The position numbers were made by a program, and so were the translations under genes. DNA of 64,000 bases from Tepidisphaerales bacterium (lineage in GTDB: Bacteria > Planctomycetota > Phycisphaerae > Tepidisphaerales > Tepidisphaeraceae). Where the stretch lies: assembly GCA_044450885.1 (NCBI GenBank), contig JBIOJL010000001.1, positions 446 to 64,445 of the forward strand. The letters run 5' to 3'. Position 1 is the first letter of the stretch. Each line of letters begins with the position of its first letter. A model generated the notes under the pieces. It had not been told where the DNA came from, ran no database searches, and saw nothing but the letters and a program-made list of their open reading frames with translations. Of this stretch, positions 1 to 19,400 are shown piece by piece.

Positions 1-909
1 TTCACCCTGGTCGAGTTGCTCGTCGTGATCGGGATCATCGCCCTGCTCATCTCCATCCTCCTGCCGGCGCTCAACGCCGCCAAGGAACGCGCCAACCGCG
101 TGAAATGCGCCTCGAACCTGCGCCAGATCGGCCAGGCCCTCCAGCTCTACGCCAATGACAACAAGATGTTCCCGAGGACCTACTACAACCCCGCCCAGTC
201 GACCAACAGCGGCAGCGCCACCACCGACAACTCGTTCTTCCTGGGCGGCGCCAAGAACGCCCCGAACTCCAACCCCTTCACCGTGGGCGGCCAGGGCAAC
301 GTCGGCGTCAACAACGTGTTGGCCGCGATGTTCCTCCTGGTGCGCACGACCGACCTGAACCAGGAAGTGTTCGTCTGCCCGAGCTCCAATCAGGAGAAGG
401 ACACGTTCACCAATGCCAGCGGCACCACGCTGACCAACAAGGACGTGTCCAACTTCTCCGGCGCCACGAACGTCTCCTACTCGTTCGCAAACCCGTATCC
501 CACGAGCCAGACCGTTGCCGCGGGCGCCATCAGCCCGATCCAGGCCGGCTACAAGTGGTCGCCCAACGTGACGGCCGACTTCGCCACGGCCGGCGACCGC
601 AATGACGGCTTTACCGGCAAGACCCCGTCCAACAACCCCAACTCTGCCAGCGCCCAGAGCGACAACCGCCAACTCAACAGCCGCAACCATGAGCAGGACG
701 GCCAGAACGTTCTGTTCAACGACGGCCACGTGGACTGGTCCCAGAGCGCCTGGGTCGGCGCCAGCATGGACAACATCTACACGGCCGCCGGCACCATGCA
801 GGGTCAGACGACGGGCGTCTACCAGCAGAACAGCCCCGCGACCAGCAAGGACTACACCAGCGTTGAGCCGCAGATCGACCTGGACACGATTCTCCTCCCG
901 CACTACTAA
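1..909 (+). CDS. DUF1559 (H-X9-DG type) protein with a prepilin-type N-terminal cleavage/methylation domain; 5' end cut by the window edge
   Basis: Frame 1 reads [24 protein letters not shown] from nt 1, a pseudopilin N-terminal helix. The motif [11 protein letters not shown] lies near the C-terminus. Stop TAA at 907-909. Confidence 0.85.
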
Positions 910-977: not shown

Positions 978-1256
978 CTGCTGCTGCGCCGTGATTCCGT
1001 GGGGTTTGGTCGCCCGCGATGATCTACCGTGGCCCCGCGATGACCCGTCGCGATGAGCCGTGGGTGTGCCGAAAGATCCGGTCAAGTGCTGCCGGTGCCC
1101 TCACCGGCAGAGTCGACCATCGATCAAGACCGCCAGCGAGGGCACTGGCGGCACTGTTGCGACCATTGTCGCCCGGATTCTTGGGCACACCCATGAGCTG
1201 TCGCGGTCACAGCCGCTTTGCCGCGAGCGGCTCGGTGGAGTAGGCTATTCCACCCT

Positions 1257-2717
1257 ATGGGTGACTCGACTCCTGCCGACGATTCGGTCCGCCGCTCCGG
1301 CTGGCCCCGGCCGCTCAAGGCGCGGCACCGCACGGGCGTCGTTGGTCTGGCCTCTTCGGGCAAGAGCACGTTCCTGGTCAGCGTCATCGACCGCATCTGG
1401 CGGCTGGACGACACCGACGAACGAAAGCTCGGCTTCTTCCACTTCACCCGCCACGTGCAGCAGCTCCCGCCATTCGCCGATGAGGGCGGGTTTCCATACC
1501 GGCAATACCGCGACTACTACCGCACGCAGCAGTGGCCGGACAAGACGGTGGCCACCAGCGAGTATCGCTGCAAGTTCTACCGCACCGGCCGGCATGCGCT
1601 GGGCCGGCTGGCGGCCGGGCTGTATGGGGAGGAACACACGCTGGCCGACATCCCCGGCGAGCGGCTGGCCGATTTCTCCATGGCGGGCAAGAGCTACGCC
1701 GAGTGGTCGGACTGGTTGCTGGACCGGCTGCAGGGCAACAAACAGTACCGGGTGCTGGCCGAGGAGTTCCTGCACCTGCTCGAGCAGCCGGCCCTGAACG
1801 AGCCGGCGCTGCTGAATGCCTACAAGATGGCGCTGGCGAACTTCACGCGGAAGATGCTGCCGCTGGTCTGCCCGTCGACGTTCCTGGTCCACGAGAAACA
1901 GCTCTATCCCAGGGGCGGCGACGAGCCGGCGCATGCGCTGCCGGTCGAGAGGCTGGTCGGCCGGGGCGTGTGCGGGCTGGATGAGACCACGCAGTTTGTC
2001 CCGCTGGGCGCGGCCGCCCGGTCGGCCAACCCGCAACTCGCGGCGACGATGGCGCAGCGCTACGACGACTACTACCAGGCGATCACCCGGCCGCTGGCCC
2101 GCGGGTTTGAGAACTGCGACGAGCTGCTGGTGCTGGTGGATGTCTGTGCCATCCTCGCCGGCGGGCCGGATGCGTACTATGGGGCGCGCTGGTCGCTGCA
2201 GATGATGCTGGAGGCGCTGGACCCCGGCTGCACCAAGACCGATCTGCTCACGGGGTTTGCCAAGGCGCTGTTCACGGGCCTGCGGCTCGGCCCGTCGCGC
2301 GTGCGGAAGATCGGGTTCGTTGCCACCAAGGCCGACGTCGTCCACAGCCGCGACCGGGCCAACCTGCGGGCGCTGCTGAAGGCCATGACCCAGGACCTGC
2401 TGGCCGCGGCCACGCTGCGGCGGCATTTGGATGTGGACTTCTTCTACTGCGCCGCCATCGAAGCCGGCGCCGACGGCGGCGAATACCCGCGCATCCGCGG
2501 CTGGGCCCGGCGCTCGGCCGAGTTGGAGTACCTCGAGTTCCCCAACTCCGCCGTCCCCCGCCAGTGGCCGGCCGAAACGCAGTGGGAAGGCCAGCGTTAC
2601 CGCTTCGCCGCCCCCGAGCCCCCGAAACTCGATCTGCTGGGCCAGAAGCCGTTTCCCAGCATCGGGATGGACGAGATCATGAAGTTCATCGGGTGGGATG
2701 GGGCGGAGGGAGAATGA
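1257..2717 (+). CDS. ycjX: YcjX-family P-loop NTPase (DUF463)
   Basis: P-loop VVGLASSGKSTFLVSVI. Other matches to my recollection of YcjX: DIPGERLADF, LVLVDVCAILAGGPDAY, a TKxD-like FVATKADVV, and a C-terminal KPFPSIGMDEIMKFIG. Length (~486 aa) also fits. ATG 1257 is preferred over the TTG at 1218 in the track. Confidence 0.85.
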   Translation: MGDSTPADDSVRRSGWPRPLKARHRTGVVGLASSGKSTFLVSVIDRIWRLDDTDERKLGFFHFTRHVQQLPPFADEGGFPYRQYRDYYRTQQWPDKTVATSEYRCKFYRTGRHALGRLAAGLYGEEHTLADIPGERLADFSMAGKSYAEWSDWLLDRLQGNKQYRVLAEEFLHLLEQPALNEPALLNAYKMALANFTRKMLPLVCPSTFLVHEKQLYPRGGDEPAHALPVERLVGRGVCGLDETTQFVPLGAAARSANPQLAATMAQRYDDYYQAITRPLARGFENCDELLVLVDVCAILAGGPDAYYGARWSLQMMLEALDPGCTKTDLLTGFAKALFTGLRLGPSRVRKIGFVATKADVVHSRDRANLRALLKAMTQDLLAAATLRRHLDVDFFYCAAIEAGADGGEYPRIRGWARRSAELEYLEFPNSAVPRQWPAETQWEGQRYRFAAPEPPKLDLLGQKPFPSIGMDEIMKFIGWDGAEGE

Positions 2718-2900
2718 CTGCATATGTGGCCAATGGCCGCCAAAGTGGGGCCAGCGTCCTCGCTGGCCATCTGTCCGCCCCCGCGGGAATTGCCCTGGGA
2801 TTGGTCGCAGTTGAAGAGGTTGGCTGCCTGCTTACTTACCACACACATAGGCGTGGCGACGAACAGCCGATATAATGGTCGTGAAGATGCGGCGGTGCCC

Positions 2901-3878
2901 ATGATTGAACGGATTGACTTCGAGAACTTCCGGATACTTAAGAAGGCGACACTGCCACTGTCGCCGCTGACGCTGCTGATTGGGCCGAATGGAAGCGGCA
3001 AGACAACCGTCCTTCAGGCGCTAAACGCACTGAAGGGTTCTGCCAATACGGATGTTGCCTCATTCACGCCCATTGGGTTAAGCCCGCAGGATGCGCCGCC
3101 GTCAGTCAGCGTTTACATGCGTTTTGGCAAGGAGGAAGCGGTCTGGCGCGAGCAGTGGAAGCCTCAACCTAGGCCGGCGCCCCAGGCTGCAGACGAGCGT
3201 GTGAAGAGGGTCGTTTCGCGAATCCGAGTGTTCAATCTCGATCATATCGCGATCGCGGCCGAATCGCCGGTGCAGGCCGGACTTGAACTGGCCGAGTCGG
3301 GCAGGAATCTGACGGCGGTTCTGGATCAACTCCGCGACGCCGCACCGGAGCGATTCGAGGCCATCAATTCTGACCTCTGCCGCTGGCTTCCTGAATACGA
3401 CCACGTTCTGTTCACAACGCCCAGATCCGGCCAGAAGGCATTCTCGCTGCGGCTTCGAGGTGTCCGTGGTGTCGTGCCATCCAAGGCGTTGTCTCAAGGA
3501 ACGCTGCTTGCCATGGCCATGCTCACGCTGGCGTACTTGCCGGATCCGCCGTCCGTTGTTTGTATCGAGGAGCCCGACCGCGGGCTGCATCCTCGCCTGT
3601 TGCGGGATGTCTGCGACGTGCTGCGGCGCCTGGCATATCCCAAGGATGCGGGGGACGACCGCGAGCCTGTCCAGGTTATCGCAACCTCCCATTCGCCGTC
3701 GATGCTCGACCTGTTCCGCGACCGGCCCGAGGAAGTGGTCATTGCGGAGCGGAACAACGATAACGTCTCCTTCCATCGTCTTTCCGACCGCACTGATCTC
3801 TCGGAAATCCTGCACGACACGAACCTGGGCGATCTCTGGTACGCCGGCGTCCTGGGGGGAGTCCCGGTTACGCCATGA
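2901..3878 (+). CDS. ABC/SMC-type ATPase (AAA_15/AAA_21-like)
   Basis: MIERIDFENFRILK...LTLLIGPNGSGKTT (Walker A), LSQGTLLAMAM (signature-like), VVCIEEPDRGLHP (Walker B/D-loop), VIATSHSPSMLD (H-loop). ATG at 2901; the 2724 start in the track is a read-through extension. Visibly lower GC than the flanks. Confidence 0.8.
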   Translation: MIERIDFENFRILKKATLPLSPLTLLIGPNGSGKTTVLQALNALKGSANTDVASFTPIGLSPQDAPPSVSVYMRFGKEEAVWREQWKPQPRPAPQAADERVKRVVSRIRVFNLDHIAIAAESPVQAGLELAESGRNLTAVLDQLRDAAPERFEAINSDLCRWLPEYDHVLFTTPRSGQKAFSLRLRGVRGVVPSKALSQGTLLAMAMLTLAYLPDPPSVVCIEEPDRGLHPRLLRDVCDVLRRLAYPKDAGDDREPVQVIATSHSPSMLDLFRDRPEEVVIAERNNDNVSFHRLSDRTDLSEILHDTNLGDLWYAGVLGGVPVTP

Positions 3879-4510
3879 AGATCGCGGTTTTCAGCGAATC
3901 GTCGGCCGACGAAGCTGCCGTCCGGATTCTGGCGGAGGCGGTGCTGGGACAGCCAATCGAACCGGTCGCAGGCAAGGCGCTGCGCCGGCCGCGAAACGGC
4001 TGGACCCATGTGGTGAAACTGCTTCGGGCCGTGATACTCGACCTGTATTTCCAGACGGATGCGGACGGGTTGATTGTCGTCGTTGATTCGAACGATTCGC
4101 CGTACCACGCACGGAACCATGACCCGGCAGCCGAGTCCGACTGCCGCTGGTGCCAGTTGATGCGCGAGGCCAACCGGGCGTGCCAGGCGCTGGCCGCCCG
4201 TCCGTGCAACAAGCGTTTCCGCGTGGCCATTGGACTCACGCCGCCTGCGATTGAAACCTGGCTCCTCTTCCGTCGCAGTCCCCACTACACGGAAGCTGCC
4301 TGGATACGTGGCCAGGGCGAGGGCCGGCCCGCGTTGAATCGCCGCCAGCTCAAGCAGGAACTCTACGGGACGATTTCGCCACCCCTGGCGCTGGAGACAG
4401 AGAAGATGGTGGAATCAGCGCGCAGGCTGGCAGGGGAGGTTGAGGCGTTTGAACGGGCGTTTCCGATCGGGTTTGGCGCGATGGCCGACGAACTTCGCCG
4501 TTGGCGCTGA
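3875..4510 (+). CDS. DUF4276-like / Toprim-like small protein partnered with the upstream ATPase
   Basis: ATGA overlap with the ATPase stop. IAVFSESSAD (acidic residue after strand 1), LIVVVDSND (DxD-like) and AIETWLL resemble the LEILVED / VVVCDLDD / EAWLL pattern I recall for DUF4276. No search was possible. Confidence 0.6.
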   Translation: MKIAVFSESSADEAAVRILAEAVLGQPIEPVAGKALRRPRNGWTHVVKLLRAVILDLYFQTDADGLIVVVDSNDSPYHARNHDPAAESDCRWCQLMREANRACQALAARPCNKRFRVAIGLTPPAIETWLLFRRSPHYTEAAWIRGQGEGRPALNRRQLKQELYGTISPPLALETEKMVESARRLAGEVEAFERAFPIGFGAMADELRRWR

Positions 4511-4564
4511 CATGTCCGGCTCGCCAACGCAGCCTTCGGCGATACAACCGCTTGAGAAACAACA

Positions 4565-4592
4565 TTGCCCCATCACCCGCCCGACGTACAAT
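4565..4592 (+). promoter_or_regulatory. Sigma70-like promoter candidate for ycjF
   Basis: TTGCCC (4565-4570), 16-nt spacer, TACAAT (4587-4592), then GGAG at 4612-4615 and ATG at 4621. Planctomycete promoter rules are poorly known. Confidence 0.25.
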
Positions 4593-4620
4593 GTGACGGG
4601 GTGTCGATACTGGAGCAACC

Positions 4621-5817
4621 ATGACTCAGAGCATCCCATCATCGTTCAGCCGCCCCCGGCCGGGACAGTCGCCGGCCGCCGTTGAACTGTTGCGCGAGGC
4701 GGTGCCGGTCGGAGCGCCGCAGGCGCAGCGGACCGGGCCGGCGCAGGGGATTCCGCCGTATGCGCTGGACCTGCTGGATGACGCGGTGTCGGTGTCGCCG
4801 CCGGCGGAGGATGCTGATGATGAGTCGCCCTGGGCCGAACAACTCGGCAAACCACACAGCCTGACGACCACGCTGCTCAACGCGCTCTTCGTGCTGGCGG
4901 TGGTGCTGGCGCTCTTCGTGGCGTCGCAGGCGGCGCTGCTCTTCAACCAAGTGGCGCTTTTGCCCGCGGTGGCCCGTCCGTTCGGCTACACGCTGCTGGC
5001 GATCCTGGCGGGCGTGCTCGCCTGGTGCGGGATGCGGTTCACCTGGAGATATCTGCGCCTGCGGGTCAGTCCGACGCTCGACCTCAACCTGCAAAAGGAC
5101 CTGCGGCGGCTCGACCAGGCCCGTCGCGAGATGCGCGAGCACCACGCCGCCCGGGCACGCGAGGTCCTGGCCAGCCTGCTGGAGGATTACCCGGTGGACC
5201 GCCCGCGCGAGATGCGGGAACTGCGGCAGGCCGGCTTCACGCGCGTGGAGATCGAGACGCTCAGCGGAACGCGATTTCACCTGAGCGGCCGGACCGCACC
5301 GGCCGACGACCCCGAGTGGCTGGCGATGTACGAGTCGGGTTTCCTGGCCACGCTGGACGCGGTGGCCGACCGGCAGGTGAAGCAGTATTACACGCGGGTG
5401 CTGACGTTCACGGCCGCCTCGCCGCGCGGCGGGCTGGACACGCTGATCGTGCTGTGGAGTTCGTACCAGATGGTGTCGGACCTCTGCCGCATCTACAACG
5501 TGCGGGCCGGGCGCTGGGGCACGGCGGTGATCCTGGGGCACCTGGTGGCCAACGTGCTGGCCGCCCGCGGCGTTCACACGGCCGCCGATTCGGCGGCGGG
5601 TTCACTCAGCAATGTGGCGCATCAGCATCTGTCGCAGACGGCGGCGGCGGCGGCGGGAATCGCCGCGAAGTTCCTCGGGCGCGTGGCCGAAGGCGGGGTG
5701 AACTGCCTGCTGATGTACCGGCTGAGCGTGCTGGCGCGGGATTATCTGCGGCCGATCCGCCGGCGGGTCGTGGCGGAGGAAAACGTGACGCGGGAGGAGA
5801 CGCCCGTCGCTGGATGA
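4621..5817 (+). CDS. ycjF: YcjF-family membrane protein (DUF697/UPF0283)
   Basis: Acidic and Pro-rich N-terminus, two N-proximal TM helices (ALFVLAVVLALFV, LLAILAGVLAWCG), a basic coiled segment, then a C-terminal hydrophobic DUF697-like region (LIVLWSSYQMVSDLCRIYNV...GGVNCLLMYRLSVLARDYLRPI). This is the usual partner of ycjX. Confidence 0.8.
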   Translation: MTQSIPSSFSRPRPGQSPAAVELLREAVPVGAPQAQRTGPAQGIPPYALDLLDDAVSVSPPAEDADDESPWAEQLGKPHSLTTTLLNALFVLAVVLALFVASQAALLFNQVALLPAVARPFGYTLLAILAGVLAWCGMRFTWRYLRLRVSPTLDLNLQKDLRRLDQARREMREHHAARAREVLASLLEDYPVDRPREMRELRQAGFTRVEIETLSGTRFHLSGRTAPADDPEWLAMYESGFLATLDAVADRQVKQYYTRVLTFTAASPRGGLDTLIVLWSSYQMVSDLCRIYNVRAGRWGTAVILGHLVANVLAARGVHTAADSAAGSLSNVAHQHLSQTAAAAAGIAAKFLGRVAEGGVNCLLMYRLSVLARDYLRPIRRRVVAEENVTREETPVAG

Positions 5818-7455: not shown

Positions 7456-8400
7456 GCGCCTGAGCAGCATCCCTGCAATGGCCCACCGGGCAGCCCTCTT
7501 TCCGCCGATTGCGACCAGTCCGCCATACACTCGCACTGGAAATGCGATCAGACCACTCACAACCAGGAGTGCGAGCGCCACAGAAACTCGCAGAGGCGAG
7601 CGAAGCCAGTTACTGTCGACAGGCTCGGACATGGCCCAGACGATGAATGTGGTCGCCACGACCGGCAGCATGAGCAGCGGAGCCACGGCATAGCATCCGG
7701 CCGCCTCGGCCTGGGTGGGATCCTGCTTGCCCACCCGCCGAAAACAAGATCGCAGCCCGGCGCCCGCTTCGACCACAAGCAGCCCCACATAGACAAACAT
7801 TGCTGGCCAGCGTGTCATTCCCACCGACCAGAGCATCCGCGGTTCGAACATCCACGGGATCCCCGCGTCACGCGTATCCAGAAAAAACGATCCCAGCCCC
7901 ACCGCCCACAGGAAGAACGCCACTCCGAACATCGCAAACAACAACAGGATGGCCACACTGACCCAGAAGAACCGCGCGGCCTCGCGCAGTTCCAGCGGCA
8001 GGCGCATCTGTTGCTGCCAGGCGCGCCCGTTAAGCGTGGCCAGGAGAACGGTCTTGACGAAGGCTCGTACGCGCCCGATGTTCCGCCGCCTCAGCCACGG
8101 CAACGTCTGGGCCAGTAGCAACTCCCGCGTGAACGGCCGGCCGCACTCGCTGCAAACGTCCGACGGCGTGCCACGCAGGTCATACCCGCAACGCGGGCAG
8201 AGAATGGGATTCTGAGTGGTGGGTTCCGACGCCACGCAGCCAGTGGACCAGCCGTGGGCCTGTGTGTCAATCGGGTCAATGGGATTGATCCGGCGGGGAC
8301 TGTTGGCGGAGGCGGCGAATCGCTTCGAGATGCACCACGGCATAGCGGTCCTTGTCACGCCCGGCCGCCTGCTTCGCGAGAATGAGCGTGTCCAGATCAA
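7375..8400 (-). CDS. Polytopic membrane protein with N-terminal zinc ribbon (CPRCGYDLRG...CSECG)
   Basis: CxxC-x11-CxxC ribbon followed by at least 5 hydrophobic helices. The true start is probably internal (ATG 8343 or GTG 8235), because 8400 overlaps the upstream gene. Confidence 0.6.
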   Translation of the reverse strand: MIWTRSFSRSRRPGVTRTAMPWCISKRFAASANSPRRINPIDPIDTQAHGWSTGCVASEPTTQNPILCPRCGYDLRGTPSDVCSECGRPFTRELLLAQTLPWLRRRNIGRVRAFVKTVLLATLNGRAWQQQMRLPLELREAARFFWVSVAILLLFAMFGVAFFLWAVGLGSFFLDTRDAGIPWMFEPRMLWSVGMTRWPAMFVYVGLLVVEAGAGLRSCFRRVGKQDPTQAEAAGCYAVAPLLMLPVVATTFIVWAMSEPVDSNWLRSPLRVSVALALLVVSGLIAFPVRVYGGLVAIGGKRAARWAIAGMLLRRLLAAVALLGVLPCCVGFVWIVVDTLR

Positions 8401-8785
8401 TGACCTTCAGGTCGATGTCATCGAGCTTCATCGATACCGACATGGCTTCAACTTCCTCGTAGGTGCCAACGCCGGTGAGTTCGCCAAGGATGTCCAGACG
8501 ACCCAGATCCGTATCGAAGTTCAGATTGCGGAATCCGTGGAGGCGCGCGGGATCCTCGAATAGCGGCAGCTTGTCCGGACGCATACGGAAACGGGCGTTA
8601 ATCCCCTGCATGGCTCGATGAATCCGCTCAAGATTCTCGTCGGTCATGGGTGCAAAGACATCAACATCGAAGGTGGCCACCGGTGAGCCCCAGATCGATC
8701 CCGCCAGGCCGCCGACGACGATGAACCGCACATCATGGTCCTTCAGCCGCCTCAGCAACGCGGTAAACGAAATTGGGGTCGCCAT
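8276..8785 (-). CDS. Pol-beta superfamily nucleotidyltransferase-like protein (MNT/DUF6036-like)
   Basis: LLRRLKDHDVRFIVVGGLAGSIWGSPVATFDVDVF fits the hG[GS]-x9-13-DhD NTase motif. The C-terminal LILAKQAAGRDKDRYAVVHLEAI is typical of this small NTase family. ATG at 8785. Confidence 0.65.
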   Translation of the reverse strand: MATPISFTALLRRLKDHDVRFIVVGGLAGSIWGSPVATFDVDVFAPMTDENLERIHRAMQGINARFRMRPDKLPLFEDPARLHGFRNLNFDTDLGRLDILGELTGVGTYEEVEAMSVSMKLDDIDLKVIDLDTLILAKQAAGRDKDRYAVVHLEAIRRLRQQSPPDQSH

Positions 8786-9944
8786 AGAGCCTCTCGTGCA
8801 AGTTGCGCATGGTGTTGACGAAATCCTCGACACGAGCGAGACGCTGCTCGGGCGAAAGGGCAAGATGCTCGGCAACAAGGTCAAGATCCACGCCATGCGC
8901 ATCCTCACCCAGGCACGGGGACAATTGCTCTGCGATGGCGTGCGTCGAAACAGGCATCCAGGATGATTCTACCATGCCGTCCGCTGCAAATCCTCCTTCT
9001 TCGTGTGTTTCGTGTTTCGTGACTCCGCTCGGCCCCGGGGCCGGGACCTGTGGCGGCGGCCCTACCGCTTCCGCAGGTTGCGCGCCGTGTGGATCGCCAA
9101 ATCCAAACGTCGATCCGCATTCGGGGCAGCGATCGGGGGTGGCGCGAAGGTCGTAGCCGCATTTGGGGCAACACCACGGCGGAAACCCGCGGGCGGGGCG
9201 GCAGGCGCGCCAGACGGCGCGCATCGCCCAGTACGCCAGCAGCGCGACGCACGCGGCCAGCGTCCCGTCCACGACGGCGATCACAGCCCAATCGACGGTG
9301 CCGTTCACATGCGGGATGGTGTCCAGGTTGTCGATGCGCTCGGCATGAAGCCCATAATACGGGCGGTCGGTTGGGTCGTCGACCTGTAGCCTACCGTAGA
9401 CGCGTACCATCTCCCTGCTGGGCGGCGTTGTCATGTTGGCGGGAACGGCAACAGCGAGCGACCCGCCTCCGTGCGGATGGTCTCCGAAGAAGGGCTGCAC
9501 CAGGTTGAACTCGCCGCTGCTGAACGAGGTCAACGACATCCCGGTTACGATCACATGCTGGTTCTCAAGGTGCAGCGGATCACGCCCGGTCTCGCGGGTG
9601 AAAGACTGGAGGTTGACCTTGACGTAGCGGTAGGAGACTTTGCGGGGCGAGGCCGTCGGGACCCAATGGCGCAGCCACAACATCGCCACCACGCTGCACG
9701 CGACCAGCAGCGACCCGACGCCGAGGATGATGCCGAGGCGGCGTCTCACGACGATGATTGTACCATCTACGGAGCCCGCACCACCTCGAACGAGTCCTGC
9801 GGCTTGACCGAGCCGCGGCCGCCCCAGGCGAAGCCGTGGGCAACGTGGCCCCGCGGACGGGCACCGATGACCTGCCGACCTCGACACCGACCGTCGGCCG
9901 CCTGTCCATGACCGCCGACGCCGTATCAGATTCTTGCGATGCAC
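8733..9944 (-). CDS. Membrane protein with a C-proximal zinc ribbon (CPKCGYDLRATPDRCPECG) and a ~75-aa C-terminal extension
   Basis: TM (LGIILGVGSLLVACSVVAMLWL), ~170-aa domain, TM (WAVIAVVDGTLAACVALLAYW), ribbon, Pro-rich linker, then a helical tail (LSPEQRLARVEDFVNTMRNL). A likely start is GTG 9749 just before RRRLGIIL; the 9944 start is uncertain. Confidence 0.55.
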   Translation of the reverse strand: MHRKNLIRRRRSWTGGRRSVSRSAGHRCPSAGPRCPRLRLGRPRLGQAAGLVRGGAGSVDGTIIVVRRRLGIILGVGSLLVACSVVAMLWLRHWVPTASPRKVSYRYVKVNLQSFTRETGRDPLHLENQHVIVTGMSLTSFSSGEFNLVQPFFGDHPHGGGSLAVAVPANMTTPPSREMVRVYGRLQVDDPTDRPYYGLHAERIDNLDTIPHVNGTVDWAVIAVVDGTLAACVALLAYWAMRAVWRACRPARGFPPWCCPKCGYDLRATPDRCPECGSTFGFGDPHGAQPAEAVGPPPQVPAPGPSGVTKHETHEEGGFAADGMVESSWMPVSTHAIAEQLSPCLGEDAHGVDLDLVAEHLALSPEQRLARVEDFVNTMRNLHERLYGDPNFVYRVAEAAEGP

Positions 9945-10178: not shown

Positions 10179-10252
10179 GGCCGAGTACCCAAGTGGACTA
10201 AGGGGACGGATTGCAAATCCGTTATTCGCCGGTTCGAATCCGGCCTCGGCCT
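10179..10252 (+). tRNA. tRNA-Cys: tRNA-Cys (anticodon GCA)
   Basis: Acceptor GGCCGAG/CTCGGCC, D-arm CCCaagtggactaaGGG, anticodon arm ACGGA-ttGCAaa-TCCGT, T-arm GCCGG-ttcgaat-CCGGC, discriminator T. No encoded CCA. Confidence 0.9.
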
Positions 10253-10477: not shown

Positions 10478-13400
10478 ATGCATCATGCGATGAAGGAGGG
10501 GATCGTGCGCCGCAACGTAAACTCGTCTGCACGTTCAATCTGTCGCCGTGGCCACCGATTAGCCAGTCTTGGAAAGGCCGCGGCTCATGCGGTCGAGCAA
10601 CTCGAATCGCGTACGCTCCTGAACTCAGGCGGCGATCCCGGAATGCCGGTGTTGCCGCCAGGATGCGTCGGCGTGCAGACGGCGGCCGGGCTGGAGGTTT
10701 CGCACCAGTCGATTGCCGGGCTGTACGCCCCGAAGTACGTCATTCTCGACCGCACGCCGGCGTTTGCCGCGGACGGAACGCTGGCGCCGTTCGCCACATC
10801 CGGCCCGACGGGGCTGACTCCGGCAAAGGTCCGCCGCGCCTACGGCATCGACCAGATCATGTTCGGCTCGGTGACGGGCGACGGCACCGGGCAGACCATC
10901 GCCATCGTCGATGCCTACGACTACCCGACCGCCTGGGCCGACCTGCAGGCCTTCGATCTGGCCTTCGGGCTGCCGAACCCGCCGAGTTTCACCCGGGTCA
11001 ACCAGACCGGGGGGTCGACGATGCCCGGGACCGACCCGGCCGGAAAGGGCAACAGTTGGGCACTGGAAGCGGCGCTGGACATCGAATGGTCGCATGCGAT
11101 GGCGCCGGGCGCCGGCATCGTGCTGGTGGAAGCCACCACGCCATCGGATGCCGACCTGATTCAAGCCGCGGCCGGTTATGCGCGCACCATTCCCGGCGTG
11201 GTGGCCGTCACCATGAGCTTCGGCCGCGACGAAGACTCGGCCGTGACCGGCCTGGACACCTGTTTCACCACGCCCGCCGGACACCCGGGGGTCACGTTCC
11301 TCGCCTCAACCGGCGACAACGGCGCGCCGGGCGGGTATCCCGCGACATCGCCGAACGTGGTGGCCGTCGGCGGAACCACATTGACAGTAGACGCCTCGGG
11401 CAACTACGTCAGCGAAAGCGGCTGGTCCGGCAGCGGCGGGGGCATCAGCAGCTACGAGAACCAGCCGACGTATCAGAAAGGAGTTGTCACCCAGAGTTCG
11501 ACGCGCCGCACGATCCCGGACGTCGCGTTCGACGCCAACCCCAGCAGCGGTGTTTCCGTATGCGACAGTTATGATTTTGGCACAAGCACACCCTGGACCG
11601 TGCTCGGCGGCACGAGCCTGTCATCGCCCTGCTGGGCAGGCATCATCGCCGTCGCCGACCAGGCCAGGTCGCTGTCGGGGCTCGGGCCGCTCGACGGCAT
11701 CGCCAAGACGTTGCCAAGACTGTACAGCATGTCGTCGAGCGCATATCACGACATCGTCACAGGCAGCAATGGATACTCCGCGGGCGCTGGATACGACCTG
11801 GTGACGGGCCGGGGTTCGCCGATCGCCAATGTGCTGGTCCCCTTGCTCGTCGGCGCCGGGCCCCTGGTTACGGGCTCGACTCCGAACGGCGTGGTCGGCA
11901 GCACGCCAACCACGCTCGATTTCACCTTCAACACCGCGATGGATCCGGCCAGTTTCTCGATCGGCACCGACGTGGCCGGCTTCACCGGGCCGGGCGGCAT
12001 CGATCTGAAGCCGACGATCGGGGGGTTCGCCTGGCTGAGCGCGCAGTCTCTCCGCATCAACTTCGCGTCCAGCAGCGCGGAGGGGCTCTACACCATGGTC
12101 ATCGGTCCGCAGATTCTCTCGACCGACGGGCGGCCCATGGACCAGGACGGCGACGGCATTGCAGGCGAGGCGGTTGACGATCGGTACACCGCTACGTTCC
12201 GATACAGCAGTTCCACCATGGGAATTGTCTCCACAAGCCCCGCGGCCGGAAGCAACGTACTGCTGCCGATGACCACGCTCGAAGTGAACTTCACGAAGCC
12301 GTACGATCCGGCGTCGATCGGCACCAACGATCTGACCTTAAGCCAGGGAAGCGTGGCGGGCTTCACGCCGGTGGACAATGACACCGTTCGATACACGCTC
12401 GCGGGCCTGACGGCCGAGGGGACTCTCAATGTCAGCGTGGCGGCCGGCGCCGTCACCGATCTGGCCGGGAATCCCGGCAGTGCCTGGCTGGCCACCTACT
12501 ACCTCGACAATCCGACGCTGGCATTTCCGGCTCCGTTGCAGGCGATCACCAGCGCCAGCGGGTTCATCTACAGCCGCTCGACGACCACCTATCTGACCCC
12601 TGGAGACACCGACAGTTTCACGATCAGCCTCGACGCCGGGCAGGCGCTCACCATCGTCGCCGATCCGGGGACCGGGCTGCTGCCGTCGGTGGCTGCCCTG
12701 GATCCGTCGGGCCTCACGCTTGGGTCGGCGTCGGCTCCCGGCGCGGGCAAGGATGCCGTCTTGCAGACGGCACCGGTACTTGCGGCGGGAACGTATACCG
12801 TGGGCGTATCGGCCCTTTCGGGGACTTCAGGCTCGTGCACGGTGCAACTGCTGTTGAATGCGGCCGTGGAAGCGGAGGGGCACGACGGTGCGACGAATGA
12901 CACCCGGGCGACCGCACAGAGCATTGACGGCGCGTTCGTGGCGCTGATCCCCGGGTCGTACCGGGCGGCCGTTGTCGGGTGGGGCGGGATCGCCGGGGGC
13001 ACCGCTCTGAGCGCCGATTTCACATCCGGCGCCAACGGGTTCACCGTCGACAACTCGGGCGGCGGCCTGTGGCATCTGTCCTCGGGACACGGGGCCGACA
13101 CCGGACACTCCAGCCCACAGAGTTTCTATTACGGAACCGGCGAGAGCGCCACCGGCGGCGGAACCTACAACACGGGAAGCCGCAATTACGGGAGCCTTGT
13201 TTCACCCTCGTTCGTCGTGCCATCGGCCGGCACGCCCACCGTGGCCTTCAACTACATCCTCAGGACCGAAGGTTCCAGTTCCTACGACGTGGCGCGGCTC
13301 CAGATCAACTCCGGCAGCGGGTGGGTGACGCTGGCGAGCTACAACGCCGTTGCTGAGAGCGCCACCTGGAAGGCGGCCACGCCGGTCAGCATCGCCTCAT

Positions 13401-16400
13401 ATTCGGGCAAGACCGTGCAGATCCGATTCTATTTCGACACGGTCGACAGCGCAGCCAACACCTACGAAGGGTGGTACGTCGACGACGTGGTCGTCAAGGC
13501 CGACGTGGCCGGAACGGACTGCTATTCCGCGACGCTGGCGGCCGGCGAGCCCGTGAACGTGGGGCTGAGCCAACTCGCGGGCAGCGGCGCCCACGTGGCG
13601 CTGCAGGATGCCGCCGGTAACACGCTGGCGTCCGGGACAACGGGGGCCGGCAACTTCGCCGAGGTCATCCGCAACTACACGCCGGCGACCTCCGGCGTGT
13701 ACTATCTCGTGGTGACCGCCGGCACGGGCGCGGATTATGCCGTCGTCGTGACGCGCAACGCCGCGCTGGATATCGAGGCCAACGACAGCATCGCACTGGC
13801 CCAGGACATGGCCGGCGCACCGGCCGCCATCGGCACCATCGCGGTCGCCGGCGGTTCGCCGACGACGGTGTTTTCCGACGGCTTCGAGTCGGGCACGCTT
13901 GGCTCGGCCTGGAGCGCTTACGCCTCCGACGCAGTTTATGGCCGGACGCGGGTCAGCAGTTCTTACGGCGCGGCCGGCGGCGCCTATGCGATGCTGATGG
14001 ACACGGCCGCGACCGCCGGTTCGTACAATTTGAACGAGGCCGTGCTCACGGTGAATCTCGCGGGCGCGATCAGCGCTTCGCTCTCATTTTCAACGATCCA
14101 GTTCGCGGACGAGACCGATCCGATGACCGCCGACTTCACCGGCCACTTCAACGGCGACGGCGTGGCGATCAGCGCCGACGGCAACCGCTGGCACCCCGTG
14201 CTCAGCGCGCCGCTCGATTCGACGTGGAAGACATACACGATCGATCTGGTTGCCGAAGCAGCCAAGGCGGGCATGTCGCTCGGCGGCAACTTCAAGATCA
14301 AGTTCCAGCAATACGACAATTTTCCGCTGACGACGGACGGCCGAGGGTGGGACAACGTCGCCGTCACCGCGGCGATGCCGAATGCAGGCGACGACTACTA
14401 TCTGCTGTCGCTGACCGCCGGAACGGTGGCCCGTCTCTCGACGCTGACGCCCGGCGGCGGCCCCGGCGAATTCGTCAACACCCTTGACCCGGCCATCGAT
14501 CTGTACGATCCGGCCGGCAACAAGGTGGCCTCGGACGACAACAGCGCTGGCGACGGACGCAATGCGGCGATCGCATATGCCATTGGCACCAGCGGCACCT
14601 GGAAGGTGCGCATCCGTAGCGTCGACGGCACCAGCGGCGAATATGTCCTGCGGCGTTCGGCCGACATACCCGTGGACCCGACGCCCGCGCGGCCGGATCT
14701 GGCCGACCAGTCCGACACCGGACTGTCTTCGACCGACAACCTCACGCGGTTGAACAACAGTTCGCCGGCCACCGCCCTGCAGTTCCGCATCGGCAATACG
14801 ATCGCCGGCGCCGCCGTCGTGCTCTTCTGCGACGGCCAGGTCATCGGCAGCGCCGCCGCCGATGGGAAAGAAACGGTGATCGCCACGAACGGCTCGACCA
14901 TCCTGCCGGACGGCGCCCATGTCTTCACGGCAGTCCAGACGCCGGCAGGCTCGACGACGTCGCCGGCATCCGCGCCGCTTAATGTCACCATCGTCGCCAC
15001 CGCGCCGGGCATTCCGCCGGCGCCGGTGCTGCAGGCGGCCAGCGACACGGGTATCAGCCCGAACGACGGCATCACCGCCGACACCACGCCGACTCTGGAT
15101 ATCAATGCCGGGCCGTACTACCGCTTGTACCGCAACGGGTCGAAAGTCAGCGGCGATTATGAGACGGCCTCATCCTTCACTTCCGCGGTCCTGCCCGACG
15201 GCGCCTGGGAGTTCACCGTCACGGCGGTGGACGCGGCCGGCAACGAGTCGGCCCCGGGCGATCCCGCGCGGGTGACGATCGACACCGTCGCGCCGGCCAC
15301 CCCCGCCGCGCCGGACCTGCAGGCCGCAAGCGACTCCGGGATCAGCTCAACCGACAACCTCACGCGGGTGCAGATGCCCGTAATCGACGTTGCGGGTTCG
15401 CCCTACTACCGACTCTATCGCGATGGCATCCGCGTCAGCGGCCTGTACGACTCCACGCCGGCGTACGTTTCGGCCAGCCTGACTGACGGCGCTTACGCGT
15501 TCACGCTCGTCTCCGTCGACGCGGCCGGGAATGCTTCCCCCGCCAGCCAGCCGCTGAACATCATCGTCGACACGATCGCGCCCCGGACTCCCGCAACACC
15601 GGATTTGCTGGCTTCCAGCGACGGGGGCGGCTCGGACACGGACAACATCACCAACATCAACACGCCGACCTTTGCGGTGACGGCCGGTCCTTATTTCCGC
15701 TTCTACCGCGACGGGGTTCAGATCAGCGGCGATTACATTTCCGGAACGACATATGCCGCGGCGCCGCAGGCGGATGGCACCTACGGCTATGCCGCCTGCG
15801 CGGTCGACGCCGCCGGCAATGTCTCGCGGATGTCGGCGCGGCTGGCGGTGACGATCGACACAACCATCCTGTTCGCGCCGGACCTGGTGGCCGCGACGGA
15901 CAGCGGCGTCAGCGACAGCGACAACATCACCCAGTTCAACAACAGTTCTCCGCAGAAGGCGCTGCAGTTCCGGCTGGCGAACACTCAGGCGGGCGTGGCG
16001 GTGCAGTTGTACGCCAATGACATCTGTCTCGCCCAGTTCGTCGCGGCCGGACCCGACAGCCTGGTGACGTGCGATGAGTCGGCGATCCTCCCGGACGGGA
16101 CCTACCGCGTGGTTGCCCGCCAGCGGGATCCCATCCGGAAGCTGTTCGTCGAATCCACGCCGATGACCCTCACCATCGACACGGTGGCGCCGCAGCCGGC
16201 GACGCTGCGGCTCGATCCCGCCTGCGACACGGGCATCAGCAGCACCGACAACCTCACGAGTATTGCCTGCCCGCAGATCGACGTGAACGCCGAGTTCTAC
16301 ACACTGTTTGTGGACGGAGTTCAGAATGGGGCAGCCTACGGTTGCGGACAAGCCGGCCCCGACCTCGGCCAGGATGGCGCGCATGCGCTGGCGGCCATCG

Positions 16401-19400
16401 CCATGGACGTCGCGGGGAATGCGGCGCCGCTGTCCGAGGTCCTGACGGTCACGCTCGACACGGAGGCGCCGGATACGCCGCCCGCCCCCGACCTGGATGC
16501 GGGCAGCGACAGCGGCATCAGCAACACCGACAACATCACCAACGACAACACGCCCACGTTCAACATCACGGCCGGGCCGTACTATCGGCTCTACCGCGAC
16601 GGCGTGCTCATCAGCGGGCTGTATGAGACATCGCCGACCTTTACCGCGACGGTGCAAGCCGATGGTTCGGCGGATTACTGCCTGTATGCCGTCGACGCCG
16701 CCGGGAATGTCTCGGCTGCCAGTTCCCTTAACGTGACCATCGACACGGTCGCCCCGTCGGCCCCGGCGGCGCCGGACCTGGACGCATCAACCGATTCGGG
16801 TCTCAGCAGCACCGACAACATCACCAATGCCGCCAGCCTCAAGTTCTACGTCTCCACGGGCGCGGACTCGATGCGGTTGTTCATCAACGGCGCCCAGGTG
16901 ACGCCCGACGGCCAGCCGTCGGGCGAGGTCACGGTGGCGTCGCCGGGCGACGGAGTGTGGAGTTTCACGACGATGGCCGTGGATGTCGCCGGCAATGTAT
17001 CCCCGGCGAGCGCCGCGCTCAGTGTTACCGTGGATACGGTGGCCCCGGCGGTGCCGGCGGCCCCGGACCTTCAGGACGGCAGCGACAGCGGCAGTTCCAA
17101 CACCGACAATATCACCAGGATCAAGACGCCGGCATTCAACGTGGCGGCCGGCCCTTATTTCCAGTTCTACCGCAATGGCGCCCGAATCAGCGGGACGTAC
17201 CAGACAGGCACTTCCTACACCGCGCCCACCCAGGCGGACGGCACCTGGGCGTACACGGTGACGGCGATCGACGCCGCCGGCAACGAATCGGCCGGCAGTA
17301 GCGCGTTGAGCGTCACGATCGACACCGTCGCCCCCGCCGCTCCGGCCATTCCCGATCTGCAGGCGGCGAGCGACAGCGGCGTAAGTTCGACGGACAACGT
17401 CACCAACAACACGGCGCCGCTTGTCGACCTCGAGGCCCCGGAAGCGGGCATCCTCCATTATGTCGTTGACGGACTCGACACGGCCATACCGGTTGACGGG
17501 CCCGGTACGGTGACGCGCGCGGCCGGCGGTGGCGTTGCGCTCGGTCCGAAGATCGCGGTGGCGACCGGAACCGGCACATTTGACGTGGCCGTGGCCGACG
17601 TCAACAACGACGGCATACCGGACATCATCGCCACCAATGCCGTAGCACATACCGTGAGCGTCAATCTTGGCAACGGTGACGGGACATTCCAGGCCGCCAT
17701 TTCCACCTCGTTCGCGCACAATGGCCCCCTGGGAATCGCCGCGGCCGACTTCAACCACGACGGCAAATGCGATGTCGTTGTCGCCGACAGCACCGACAAA
17801 GCCTACGTCCTGTTCGGAAACGGCGCTGGTAGGTTCACGACTGGTCCCGTGCTGCAACTGAGGGCCGGCTGCTCGGTGATGAGGCTTGCCGCCGTGGACC
17901 TGAATGCCGACGGCAATGTCGACGTTGTTGCTGCCGAACGCTTGTACCCCGGCGTCGGCGTAGTCTACGGAAACGGCGACGGGACCTTTCAACCTTGTGC
18001 CTCGTACGACGCGGGCGGCGGGGAAATGTACGAGGTGGCCTTCGCCGACTTCAACAAGGACGGCCGCCTCGACATTGCATACCGCGTAGGAATCGCCGCG
18101 GACTGGTCGATCGTGACCATGCTCCAGGACGCCAGCGGCAAGTTCGGACCGCCCCTCTTCACCACCACCGGCAACAGCATCGGAGGCTTCGCTGTCGGAG
18201 ATTACGACAAGGATGGCTCTGTTGACCTTGTGGCGTCTCCGGGAGGCACCGCCGGCGAATTATACTTCCTCAAGGGGAACGGCAACGGGACTTTCACCCT
18301 GAGTGGACAGTCCGCTGTCGCCGCTGCCGGCCAGTGTGTTTCCGCGGATTTTAACGCTGATGGCAACCTGGATTGCGCCAGTCTCAGTTCCACGGCTGAC
18401 GCGATCGCTCTCCTGCTCGGCAATGGCGATGGCACGTTCCAGGCGTGCAAGGTCTACCCGACCAGCGGCAGCACGTTTGACCTCGTCAGCATCGACTTCA
18501 ACGCTGATGGCCGACCCGACCTCGCCATGCCCGACTACGAAGGAAACGCGGTGAATGTCCTCATGACCAGCCCGGCCGTGCTTGCCGATGGCATGCATAC
18601 GGCGTACGCCCGCATGGAAGACATCGCCGGCAACCTATCAGCCTCCAGCCCGTCGCTTACGATCACGGTCGACACGATCGCGCCCGCCGCGCCGGCGGCC
18701 CCGGACCTGCAGGCGGCCAGCGACAGCGGCATCTCCAACACCGACAACATCACCAACATCACGAACCCGGCCTTCAGCGTCTCGGCCGGCCCCTACTTCC
18801 GCTTCTACCAGAACGGCTTGCAACTGGGCGGGGACTACCAGACGGGAACAAACTACACGCTGGCCACACAGAGCGACGGCACATCGAGCTACAGTGTGGT
18901 GGCGGTGGATGCCGCGGGCAACGCGTCCGCTCCCAGCCCGGCGCTGAGCGTCACCATCGACACGGTGGCGCCAGACACCATCGCGCCCACGGTTCCCGAC
19001 CTCGAAGATGCCAGCGACAGCGGCATCTCCAACACCGACGACCTCACCAACAACGCCACACCGGGTTTTGCCGTCACCGCTCCCGAGGCCGGCGTCGTGC
19101 GGCTGATGGTGGATGGCGCAGCCGGGCCGGCGGTGCAGGTCGCGGGCCCCGGCATGGTCCGCCTGACCATCGCCTCTGCTCTCAGCGATGGCGCGCACCA
19201 GGTGAGCGCTGCGATGGAGGACCTTGCAGGCAACCAGGGGCCCCGGAGCACAACTCTATCCGTGACCATCGACACGGTGGCGCCGGCCGCACCGGCCGCA
19301 CCCGACCTCGAGGCCGCCAGCGATTCGGGCATCTCCAGCACGGACAACATCACCAACGTCAAGGCACCGATCTTCGACGTGGGCGCCACCCCGTACTTCC

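Follow-up and report, generated by a model that had tools for sequence, protein, structure and literature searches.

ATP-binding cassette (ABC) ATPases combined with Toprim proteins are a recurring immune design, seen in OLD, Gabija, PARIS, AbiL, Mad3/4 and HEC-01. We analyzed a gene pair with a comparable layout in a 64,000-nt stretch of DNA from a Tepidisphaeraceae bacterium of the Planctomycetota (GenBank assembly GCA_044450885.1, contig JBIOJL010000001.1), which is called the window here. The first gene encodes an ATPase of 325 amino acids (aa) and the second gene encodes a protein of 211 aa, called the partner. The reading that we favor, with slight rather than strong confidence, is that the locus is a self-contained two-gene operon for an ATP-regulated, Toprim-like nuclease module of the HEC-01/AbiL/PARIS class.

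In PARIS, a trigger makes AriA release AriB (PMC11464382). The toxic effector of AbiL is AbiLii, and TOPRIM_OLD toxins that are neutralized by AAA-type ATPase antitoxins form validated toxin-antitoxin pairs (PMC10440598). DUF4276 and RloB proteins are members of the Toprim superfamily with a conserved E and DxD (PMC12065111). HEC-01, or Hma-embedded candidate 01 (Payne et al., bioRxiv 10.1101/2024.01.29.577857), is represented in PADLOC by the models HEC-01A and HEC-01B, and HEC-01B resembles TOPRIM with the metal site kept (bioRxiv 10.1101/2024.01.29.577857). A preliminary description of the window pair had stated that DUF4276-type partners were experimentally uncharacterized. That statement is outdated, as Mad4 of MADS is a DUF4276 homologue (PMC12065111) and HEC-01 has been tested against phages (bioRxiv 10.1101/2024.01.29.577857).

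The features of the pair are given below. Coordinates are positions in the whole 64,000-nt window, position 1 being its first letter.

2871-2876, plus strand: TATAAT, a -10-like box 24 nt 5' of the ATPase start codon (sequence; conserved with the sister locus L011)
2901-3878, plus strand: ABC-type ATPase, AAA_21/AAA_15, HEC-01A-like, 325 aa (Pfam and PADLOC matches)
2982-3005, plus strand: Walker A (P-loop) GPNGSGKT, aa 28-35 (sequence)
3489-3503, plus strand: ABC signature-like motif LSQGT, aa 197-201 (sequence, alignment with relatives)
3555-3584, plus strand: Walker B and D-loop VVCIEEPDRG, aa 219-228 (sequence, alignment with relatives)
3684-3695, plus strand: H-loop TSHS, aa 262-265 (sequence)
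3875-3878, plus strand: ATGA overlap of the partner start codon with the ATPase stop codon (sequence)
3875-4510, plus strand: partner, 211 aa, of an unannotated family remotely related to DUF4276/HEC-01B; predicted Toprim-like metal-dependent nuclease
3893-3913, plus strand: SESSADE, aa 7-13, with E8 as the proposed Toprim glutamate (conservation, model, alignment)
4076-4096, plus strand: VVVDSND, aa 68-74, the proposed DxD equivalent (conservation, model, alignment)
4106-4153, plus strand: loop HARNHDPAAESDCRWC, aa 78-93, a possible zinc-binding H/H/C/C site (conservation)
4250-4267, plus strand: IETWLL, aa 126-131, directly after the last core strand (conservation, model, alignment)
4349-4477, plus strand: C-terminal helical domain of the partner (conservation, model)

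HEC-01 is the named candidate that comes closest to the window pair. The pair resembles HEC-01 in its two genes, an ABC ATPase followed by a TOPRIM-like protein of about 205-215 aa, and HEC-01A is the best match of the window ATPase. However, the PADLOC HEC-01B models do not detect the window partner, as it matches none of them. The window ATPase has 325 aa compared with 363-464 positions in the HEC-01A models, and most of the first insert is missing. In addition, the pair lies outside any Hma, restriction-modification (RM) or other defence locus, although HEC-01 was discovered by its embedding in such loci, and the partner carries the His/Cys loop.

Pairs with a DUF4276 protein, including Mad3/Mad4 of MADS, share gene order, overlap and protein sizes with the window pair. 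The Meiothermus plasmid pMtWR-220, for example, encodes a 421-aa ATPase and a 211-aa DUF4276 protein, and the motif series E...VVVD.D...C-R...E-A-W is common to this Meiothermus type and the partner family. Compared with MADS, the partner misses the PF14103 model, and no methyltransferase or other mad genes are nearby. The window ATPase is not a MAD3 protein, because it scores 115 bits against the NCBIfam MAD3 model NF047739, far under the cut-off of 420. The DUF4276 plasmid pairs are located in RM, Hma-like or prophage-like loci, whereas the window family is not.

AbiL (AbiLi/AbiLii) and RloA/RloB also combine a separate ABC ATPase with a small Toprim-like effector. Their ATPases are longer, AbiL is plasmid-borne, RloAB is found in type I RM loci and the window partner has no RloB match. 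PARIS shares with the window pair an ABC ATPase, there a sensor, and a separate Toprim nuclease, acting in a toxin-antitoxin-like manner. Both window proteins are shorter than AriA (53-55 kDa) and AriB (35 kDa) (PMC11464382), as the preliminary description had noted. AriB is a DUF4435 protein of ∼35 kDa, whereas the partner has no DUF4435 similarity. AriA has two inserts that form its hexamer and trigger site, and the window ATPase lacks most of the first one. PARIS is typically carried by phages or satellites; the window family was absent from the viral contigs searched. OLD and Gabija GajA likewise combine an ABC ATPase with a Toprim nuclease, but as single fused polypeptides with a canonical Toprim_OLD domain, whereas the window has two separate ORFs (open reading frames). 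The partner has no detectable sequence or Foldseek similarity to their solved Toprim domains. In a toxin-antitoxin-like module with an ATPase antitoxin, of the NetFlax D29 type, the effector would be toxic alone and neutralized by the ATPase; what the window pair shows in this respect is its overlapping bicistronic layout.

For each of HEC-01, DUF4276, RloB, PARIS, MADS and OLD, the window pair thus lacks at least one of the defining features tested. The statement that the pair works like these systems is better supported than the statement that it is a member of one of them.

The ATPase and its coupling to the partner gene

Both ORFs named in the preliminary description, 2901-3878 and 3875-4510, were confirmed in the sequence. 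Every motif named there is present: Walker A, signature-like, Walker B and H-loop motifs in the ATPase, and FSESSAD (aa 6-12), VVVDSND (aa 68-74) and ETWLL (aa 127-131) in the partner. The proposed translational coupling also holds, with the ATGA overlap at 3875-3878.

The window ATPase matched Pfam AAA_21 (PF13304) with an E-value of 4.6e-27 and 96.3 bits (gathering cut-off 27), and AAA_15 (PF13175) with 1.6e-21 and 77.8 bits (gathering cut-off 32.1). Its best PADLOC match was the HEC-01A model PDLC04183 (4.4e-46), and nine further HEC-01A models also matched. These ten were followed, in order, by PDC-M07A, mad3, AriA, AbiLi, NsnB, Old and PtuA. AriA scored 2.9e-28 over parts of the protein, AbiLi 2e-21, and Old 1.4e-17 at the N-terminus. 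The first gene is thus an AAA_21/AAA_15 ABC ATPase, and its best matches are the ATPases of systems in which an ABC ATPase accompanies a Toprim protein, as had been proposed. NCBIfam matches to RecF, Rad50 and transporters spanned the P-loop only. Readings of the ATPase as MAD3, AriA, PtuA or RecF were rejected, the matches being partial (N-terminal P-loop or C-terminal half) and far under the curated cut-offs.

Alignment with relatives showed that all four ABC motifs of the window ATPase are kept, in order. The ATPases of the window family are ∼325-347 aa long, compared with 364-428 aa for the plasmid ATPases that precede DUF4276 genes. Compared with these DUF4276-paired plasmid ATPases, the window ATPase and its family have only a small part of the variable insert that follows the Walker A helix. 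They also carry a family-specific insert of ∼10 residues after the D-loop helix, which is YPKDAGDDRE (aa 246-255) in the window.

The two genes were found together in nearly all loci that we compared. Of 85 loci, which come from at least six phyla, 81 have an ATPase of the same family directly 5' of the partner, and the four loci without an ATPase call are contig edges or ORF-calling problems. The pairing is near-universal. A 4-nt overlap as in the window was called in 32 of the 85 loci. A -43 overlap was called in 19 further loci, and these are probably over-extended ORF starts. The AAA_21 score, the homologues of the partner and the 5' position of the ATPase in 81 of 85 loci show that the gene pair is real, well beyond chance.

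The closest relative of the pair is L011, from the Tepidisphaeraceae metagenome-assembled genome GCA_049514055.1, where L011:1897-3491 corresponds to window 2901-4510. The ATG at 2901 is supported as the ATPase start because homologues begin at the same MI..I.F.NF motif. It is also supported because conservation with L011 falls off 5' of the block GAACAGCCGATATAATG, which is conserved between the two loci and contains the TATAAT at 2871-2876; similarity is high from this block onward and poor 5' of it. The TATAAT may belong to a promoter of the pair itself, followed by a short leader. It was not called in a sigma-70 scan, for want of a matching -35. We compared the 90 nt before the ATPase start in 62 loci (for example L025, L045, L046, L053 and L057). 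Boxes like -10 elements (TATAAT, TAGAGT, CATAGT) were located ∼10-35 nt 5' of the start in many of them, and beyond these boxes no common motif that could be a shared operator was found across the 62 loci. Boxes so close to the start codon suggest a dedicated promoter for the pair, with a leader that is very short or missing.

The partner protein and its relatives

In direct hidden Markov model scans, the window partner had no Pfam, PADLOC or NCBIfam match at E<=0.1. It has 184 close homologues, and a precomputed Pfam domain was present in none of the 120 listed. An exhaustive profile search gave a partner family of 739 clusters at 50% identity, 360 of them at E<=1e-30.

Residue conservation was computed over 254 sequences of this family. 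E8, directly after strand 1 (aa 2-6), and D71, which ends the third strand (aa 65-71), are both 100% conserved. D12 is conserved in 98% and E13 in 88%. Further on, E127 (98%), W129 (100%) and E140 (99%) are conserved, as are K160 (100%), Y164 (96%) and F196-P-x-G-F200 (96-98%) in the C-terminal domain. The acidic motifs pointed out in the preliminary description are therefore real and conserved family-wide, with E8 and D71 at 100% and E127 at 98%.

Between the DxD-like motif and the next helix, the family has the pattern H-x2/3-H-x7/8-C-R-x-C. H78 is conserved in 89%, a second His in about 72% of members, C90 in 89%, R91 in 99% and C93 in 87%. The Meiothermus-type DUF4276 subfamily has a single C-R where the partner family has this His/Cys loop. 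It is possible that the loop forms a family-specific zinc site with H/H/C/C ligands.

The AlphaFold2 model of the partner had a pLDDT (predicted local distance difference test score) of 92.9 and a pTM (predicted template modelling score) of 0.90. It has an N-terminal alpha/beta domain (aa 1-∼136) and a helical C-terminal domain (aa ∼140-211). The order of elements in the model is strand 2-6, helix 10-24, a two-residue strand 29-30, helix 42-60, strand 65-71, a long loop, helix 91-107, strand 116-122 and then the helical C-terminal domain. From this order, E8, D71 and E127 would be located at the C-terminal ends of three parallel strands. These predicted positions fit the Toprim layout, where Toprim proteins place the Glu and the DxD.

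To relate the partner to described families, 41 of its relatives were scanned singly against the Pfam and PADLOC models. RloB matched 4 of the 41 (best E 0.008) and DUF4276 (PF14103) matched one (E 0.043). Three HEC-01B models matched 13, 10 and 2 of the 41, all below threshold, the best at 1.2e-4. PDC-M38B matched 3 and mad4 matched 2 (E>=0.02). Where seen, the HEC-01B alignments begin at residue 1 of both protein and model, and these models, with 204-213 positions, are of partner size. Similarity to RecR, Toprim_4 or RNase M5 was not found in the Pfam scan of the 41 relatives. Neither the partner nor these relatives matched DUF4435/AriB in Pfam or PADLOC, and neither matched Toprim_OLD.

Genuine DUF4276 sequences were obtained by searching plasmids with the window ATPase and reading the neighbours. 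Two DUF4276 subtypes that are clearly different in sequence were present among these neighbours. The canonical subtype has the series EGQTEE...DYYG...HEFEALLF. The Meiothermus/Rahnella subtype has VEEPSMEAF...VVVDRDDDDCRRLK...EELEAWYF, and its motifs visibly resemble those of the partner family. PF14103 was present in all 120 listed relatives of the Meiothermus protein. When the partner family was compared with the Meiothermus type by hhalign, the probability was 76.7% (E 2.1e-5) when we supplied our own alignments and 80.9% (E 1.3e-5) when the tool built them. The hhalign alignment is collinear from Met1 to the EAW motif, about 115 columns. It pairs E8, D71, C90-R91 and E127-A-W129 with the E, D (VVVDRDD), C-R and E-A-W of DUF4276, E8 being paired with the EEP glutamate. 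Against the canonical subtype the probability was <1%, which says little because the two genuine PF14103 subfamilies likewise score only 1.2% against each other.

The earlier label "DUF4276-type" for the partner is thus weakly supported. It is backed by the hhalign probability of 77-81% and by the sub-threshold HEC-01B matches; on the other side, PF14103 misses the window protein and reaches only the one relative, at E 0.043. Judged by these alignments, the partner appears to be a remote branch of the DUF4276/HEC-01B group, which the literature places in the Toprim superfamily, and a Toprim fold is plausible for it. Searches of PDB sequences gave only chance matches for the partner-family profile (for example ARF1, E 0.17) and nothing for the DUF4276-subfamily profile. 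By sequence, then, no solved relative can be detected for either the partner family or the DUF4276 subfamily.

Distribution and genomic context

We scanned 185,579 species genomes, one per species, and found partner relatives in at least 151 of them. The best 80 species are mostly Verrucomicrobiota (Opitutia), Planctomycetota and Acidobacteriota; a few belong to Gemmatimonadota, Binatia, Thermodesulfobacteriota and others. The nearest plasmid relatives of the ATPase pair with DUF4276 proteins in Hma-like, type I RM and prophage-like settings. The plasmid and related loci that we read were L172 (Meiothermus pMtWR-220), L010 and L175 (Aeromonas plasmids) and L173 (Rahnella). The layouts included an Hma-like order, methyltransferase-ATPase-DUF4276-helicase, and a type I RM order, hsdS-DUF4433-macro-ATPase-DUF4276-hsdR. 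ATPase-DUF4276 pairs on plasmids also lie between a methyltransferase and a helicase or SNF2 gene.

In the window, the pair is flanked by two genes that lie outside the module.

1218-2717, plus strand: YcjX-like P-loop protein (DUF463), upstream flank (Pfam DUF463, 3.5e-45)
4621-5817, plus strand: YcjF-like membrane protein (DUF697), downstream flank (Pfam DUF697, 1.9e-20; TIGR01620)

The ycjX and ycjF genes of E. coli K-12 share a 4-nt overlap. The ATPase-partner pair appears to be a 1.9-kb insert that splits a ycjX/ycjF-like operon, with the flanks marking the insertion site. The GC content is 0.60-0.62 over the ATPase versus 0.67-0.71 in both flanks. Around the insert, a search for flanking repeats and mobile-element scars gave short chance repeats only, and an Rfam scan of 2500-4800 gave nothing.

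L011 has the identical four-gene order with 85-89% DNA identity, and both inserted genes are broken. In its ATPase gene, codon 125 is changed from CAG to TAG (Q125; window 3273-3275) and there is a 6-bp deletion. In its partner gene, a 9-bp deletion removes D71-S-N73, and codon 81 is changed from AAC to TAG (N81; window 4115-4117). The flanking DUF463 and DUF697 genes of L011 are intact. With intact flanks and both inserted genes broken, the pair looks acquired, dispensable and lost as a unit in the lineage of the window and L011. The joint decay of the two genes fits a unit that functions together.

Some further observations were made in the window. Just 5' of the DUF697 gene there is a sigma-70-like promoter match, TTGCCC-16-TACAAT (4565-4592), which might restore DUF697 expression. 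A DUF1559 (SBP_bac_10) protein with a prepilin-type N-terminus is encoded at 16-909 (plus strand), in agreement with the origin from Planctomycetota to which the genome of L011 also points. The ORF at 8276-8908 (minus strand) encodes 210 aa with weak, sub-cut-off similarity to the nucleotidyltransferase families DUF2204 and DUF6036, which are often found in small toxin-antitoxin-like pairs. A tRNA-Cys (GCA) at 10179-10252 (plus strand) is located just 5' of a single 5753-aa ORF at 10478-27739 (plus strand), which has a subtilase-like N-terminus and many repeated Ig-like, FG-GAP/VCBS-like and pectate-lyase-like segments.

Function of the pair

In the mechanism that we propose, the first gene would provide a compact ABC-type (SMC/Rad50-like, AAA_21) ATPase, and the coupled second gene a small alpha/beta protein acting as a divalent-metal-dependent nuclease. 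The active site of this putative nuclease would combine E8, which follows strand 1, with D71-S-[D/N]73 where strand 3 ends and E127 behind strand 4. The partner would be bound by the ATPase and gated through ATP binding and hydrolysis. The ATPase could act as a sensor and antitoxin that frees the nuclease on a trigger, as in PARIS- and AbiL-type systems, or it could be a subunit that loads nucleic acid. Direct support exists for the gene pair and its coupling, for acidic residues and ATPase motifs that are conserved family-wide, and for an obligate pairing of the two genes. The Toprim fold, the nuclease activity, the substrate and the biological role of the module are what we infer. By homology, the most likely role would be abortive-infection or toxin-antitoxin-like defence, which the genomic distribution does not confirm. 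Signs of accessory behaviour speak for the favored reading: the Hma-like, RM and prophage-like settings of the nearest plasmid ATPases, the splitting of the ycjX/ycjF-like operon, the lower GC content and the decay of both genes in L011.

Several results weigh against a Toprim nuclease module in defence. The window partner has no significant match to any Toprim, DUF4276, RloB, DUF4435 or HEC-01B model. Position 73, the second Asp of the DxD, is D in 72% of family members but N in 27%, and the window partner has N. Foldseek was run on the full partner model with PDB and BFVD as targets, and on a core model of 138 residues (pLDDT 86.7) with PDB as target. It gave nothing at E<=1e-3, and no Toprim protein was among the top 50 matches of either model. 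The matches were generic three-layer alpha/beta proteins of flavodoxin- or Rossmann-like type (TIR, receiver, lumazine synthase, G-alpha) with TM (template modelling) scores of 0.3-0.47. The earlier expectation that structure prediction would reveal a Toprim fold was therefore not borne out with these two confident models. HEC-01, also an ABC ATPase with a TOPRIM protein, gave no protection in E. coli against the phages used (bioRxiv 10.1101/2024.01.29.577857). No family member was found in 2.9 million viral contigs. Ten Pfam-annotated neighbourhoods were of the housekeeping type, with RM, CRISPR or Abi genes in none and toxin-antitoxin modules within 10 kb in only one. In Opitutia the syntenic neighbours are efflux and lipid genes. 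A defence-island context, which had been expected for this family, was not seen in these neighbourhoods.

The Opitutia loci (L012-L091 and L092-L135) give the clearest picture of the context. In these verrucomicrobial loci the pair has a fixed slot, AcrB-TolC-c17-(EF-G-like)-ATPase-partner-(MarR-DUF2157)-Aas-like, in which the Aas-like gene is a fusion of MFS, acyltransferase and AMP-binding domains. Pairwise identity over 25 such loci averaged 65.6% in the partner, 53.3% in the ATPase and 58.4% in the Aas-like neighbour, and the divergences correlate (Spearman 0.62-0.78). The pair thus diverges no faster than its housekeeping neighbour, which is a further point on the contrary side. As an independent test, metagenome contigs were searched with the Aas-like gene alone and the pair was then sought 5' of it. 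It was present at the syntenic site in 29 of the 31 informative loci, and these 29 carry 27 distinct partner sequences at 95% identity. In L092, one of the Aas-anchored loci without the pair, a sigma-54 activator occupies the slot. The fixed slot, near-universal presence and slow divergence indicate vertical inheritance under purifying selection. Such a near-fixed and slowly evolving presence is unusual for a defence module. The homology to defence systems points to immunity, whereas the Opitutia data point to a stable cellular function.

A cellular rather than immune role is therefore a possibility that we take seriously while leaning against it. The pair would be a domesticated ATPase-nuclease, fixed in the chromosome, in DNA repair or RNA processing, with a layout comparable to RecF/RecR or to the Toprim RNase M5, and the planctomycete copy would be a sporadic horizontal acquisition. 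The fixed slot with the pair in 29 of 31 anchored loci, the partner being more conserved than its Aas-like neighbour with correlated divergences (rho 0.62-0.78), the absence from viral contigs and from defence islands, and the inactivity of HEC-01 against the phages tested all argue for it. However, the characterized relatives of this architecture (OLD, Gabija, PARIS, AbiL, Mad3/4, Menshen) are all defence systems. Members outside Opitutia are rare and patchily distributed (at least 151 of 185,579 species genomes), with a different context each time, and in L011 the two genes have decayed jointly and are dispensable. The pair is absent from at least two Opitutia-like loci, one of them with the sigma-54 activator in its slot, and similarity to RecR, Toprim_4 or RNase M5 was not detected.

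A more specific proposal, which we regard as rather doubtful, is that an OLD/HEC-01-type architecture has been domesticated in Opitutia. It would be a near-core, vertically inherited module for non-immune maintenance of nucleic acids, with an unannotated partner whose family-specific His/His/Cys/Cys loop, possibly binding zinc, lies beside the active site. The copies in Planctomycetota, Acidobacteriota and other phyla would then be horizontal offshoots.

We consider it improbable that the partner is not a nuclease. Under this alternative it would serve as an adaptor or regulator without catalysis, or belong to a different class of enzyme, with a generic Rossmann- or flavodoxin-like fold, and the acidic residues and the His/Cys loop would bind metal or ligand for another purpose. 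The generic Foldseek matches with no Toprim among them, the degenerate DxD (D-S-N in the window) and the DUF4276 link of only 77-81% hhalign probability are consistent with this. In contrast, E8, D71 and E127 lie at strand ends with 98-100% conservation, as is typical of a catalytic metal site, and they align with their DUF4276 counterparts. The ATPase that always accompanies the partner has relatives that in every case are paired with nucleases, and the L011 pseudogene has lost exactly the D71 motif.

That the pair forms a four-gene unit with the flanking YcjX-like GTPase and YcjF-like membrane protein is very improbable: the identical gene order in the window and L011 speaks for it, but DUF463 or DUF697 neighbours recur at none of the 84 remaining loci, the ycjX and ycjF genes of E. 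coli are coupled directly with no insert, and in L011 the flanks are intact while the inserted pair is dead. A functional link of the pair to ycjX/ycjF was rejected, this neighbourhood being unique to the lineage of the window and L011.

The Toprim-like nuclease module that we favor for the window stands for a sizeable family (∼740 clusters at 50% identity) whose effector is missed by the current Pfam, PADLOC and NCBIfam models. Annotation pipelines will call only the ATPase, and the partner will stay "hypothetical". No activity has been demonstrated for the small DUF4276/HEC-01B branch, and sequence searches detect no solved structure for it. With its unusually small ATPase, the window pair could be a convenient minimal system for biochemistry and structural work. 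The Opitutia pattern raises the possibility that some ATPase-Toprim members serve a cellular function, and it calls into question the default label of "defence" for pairs of this kind.

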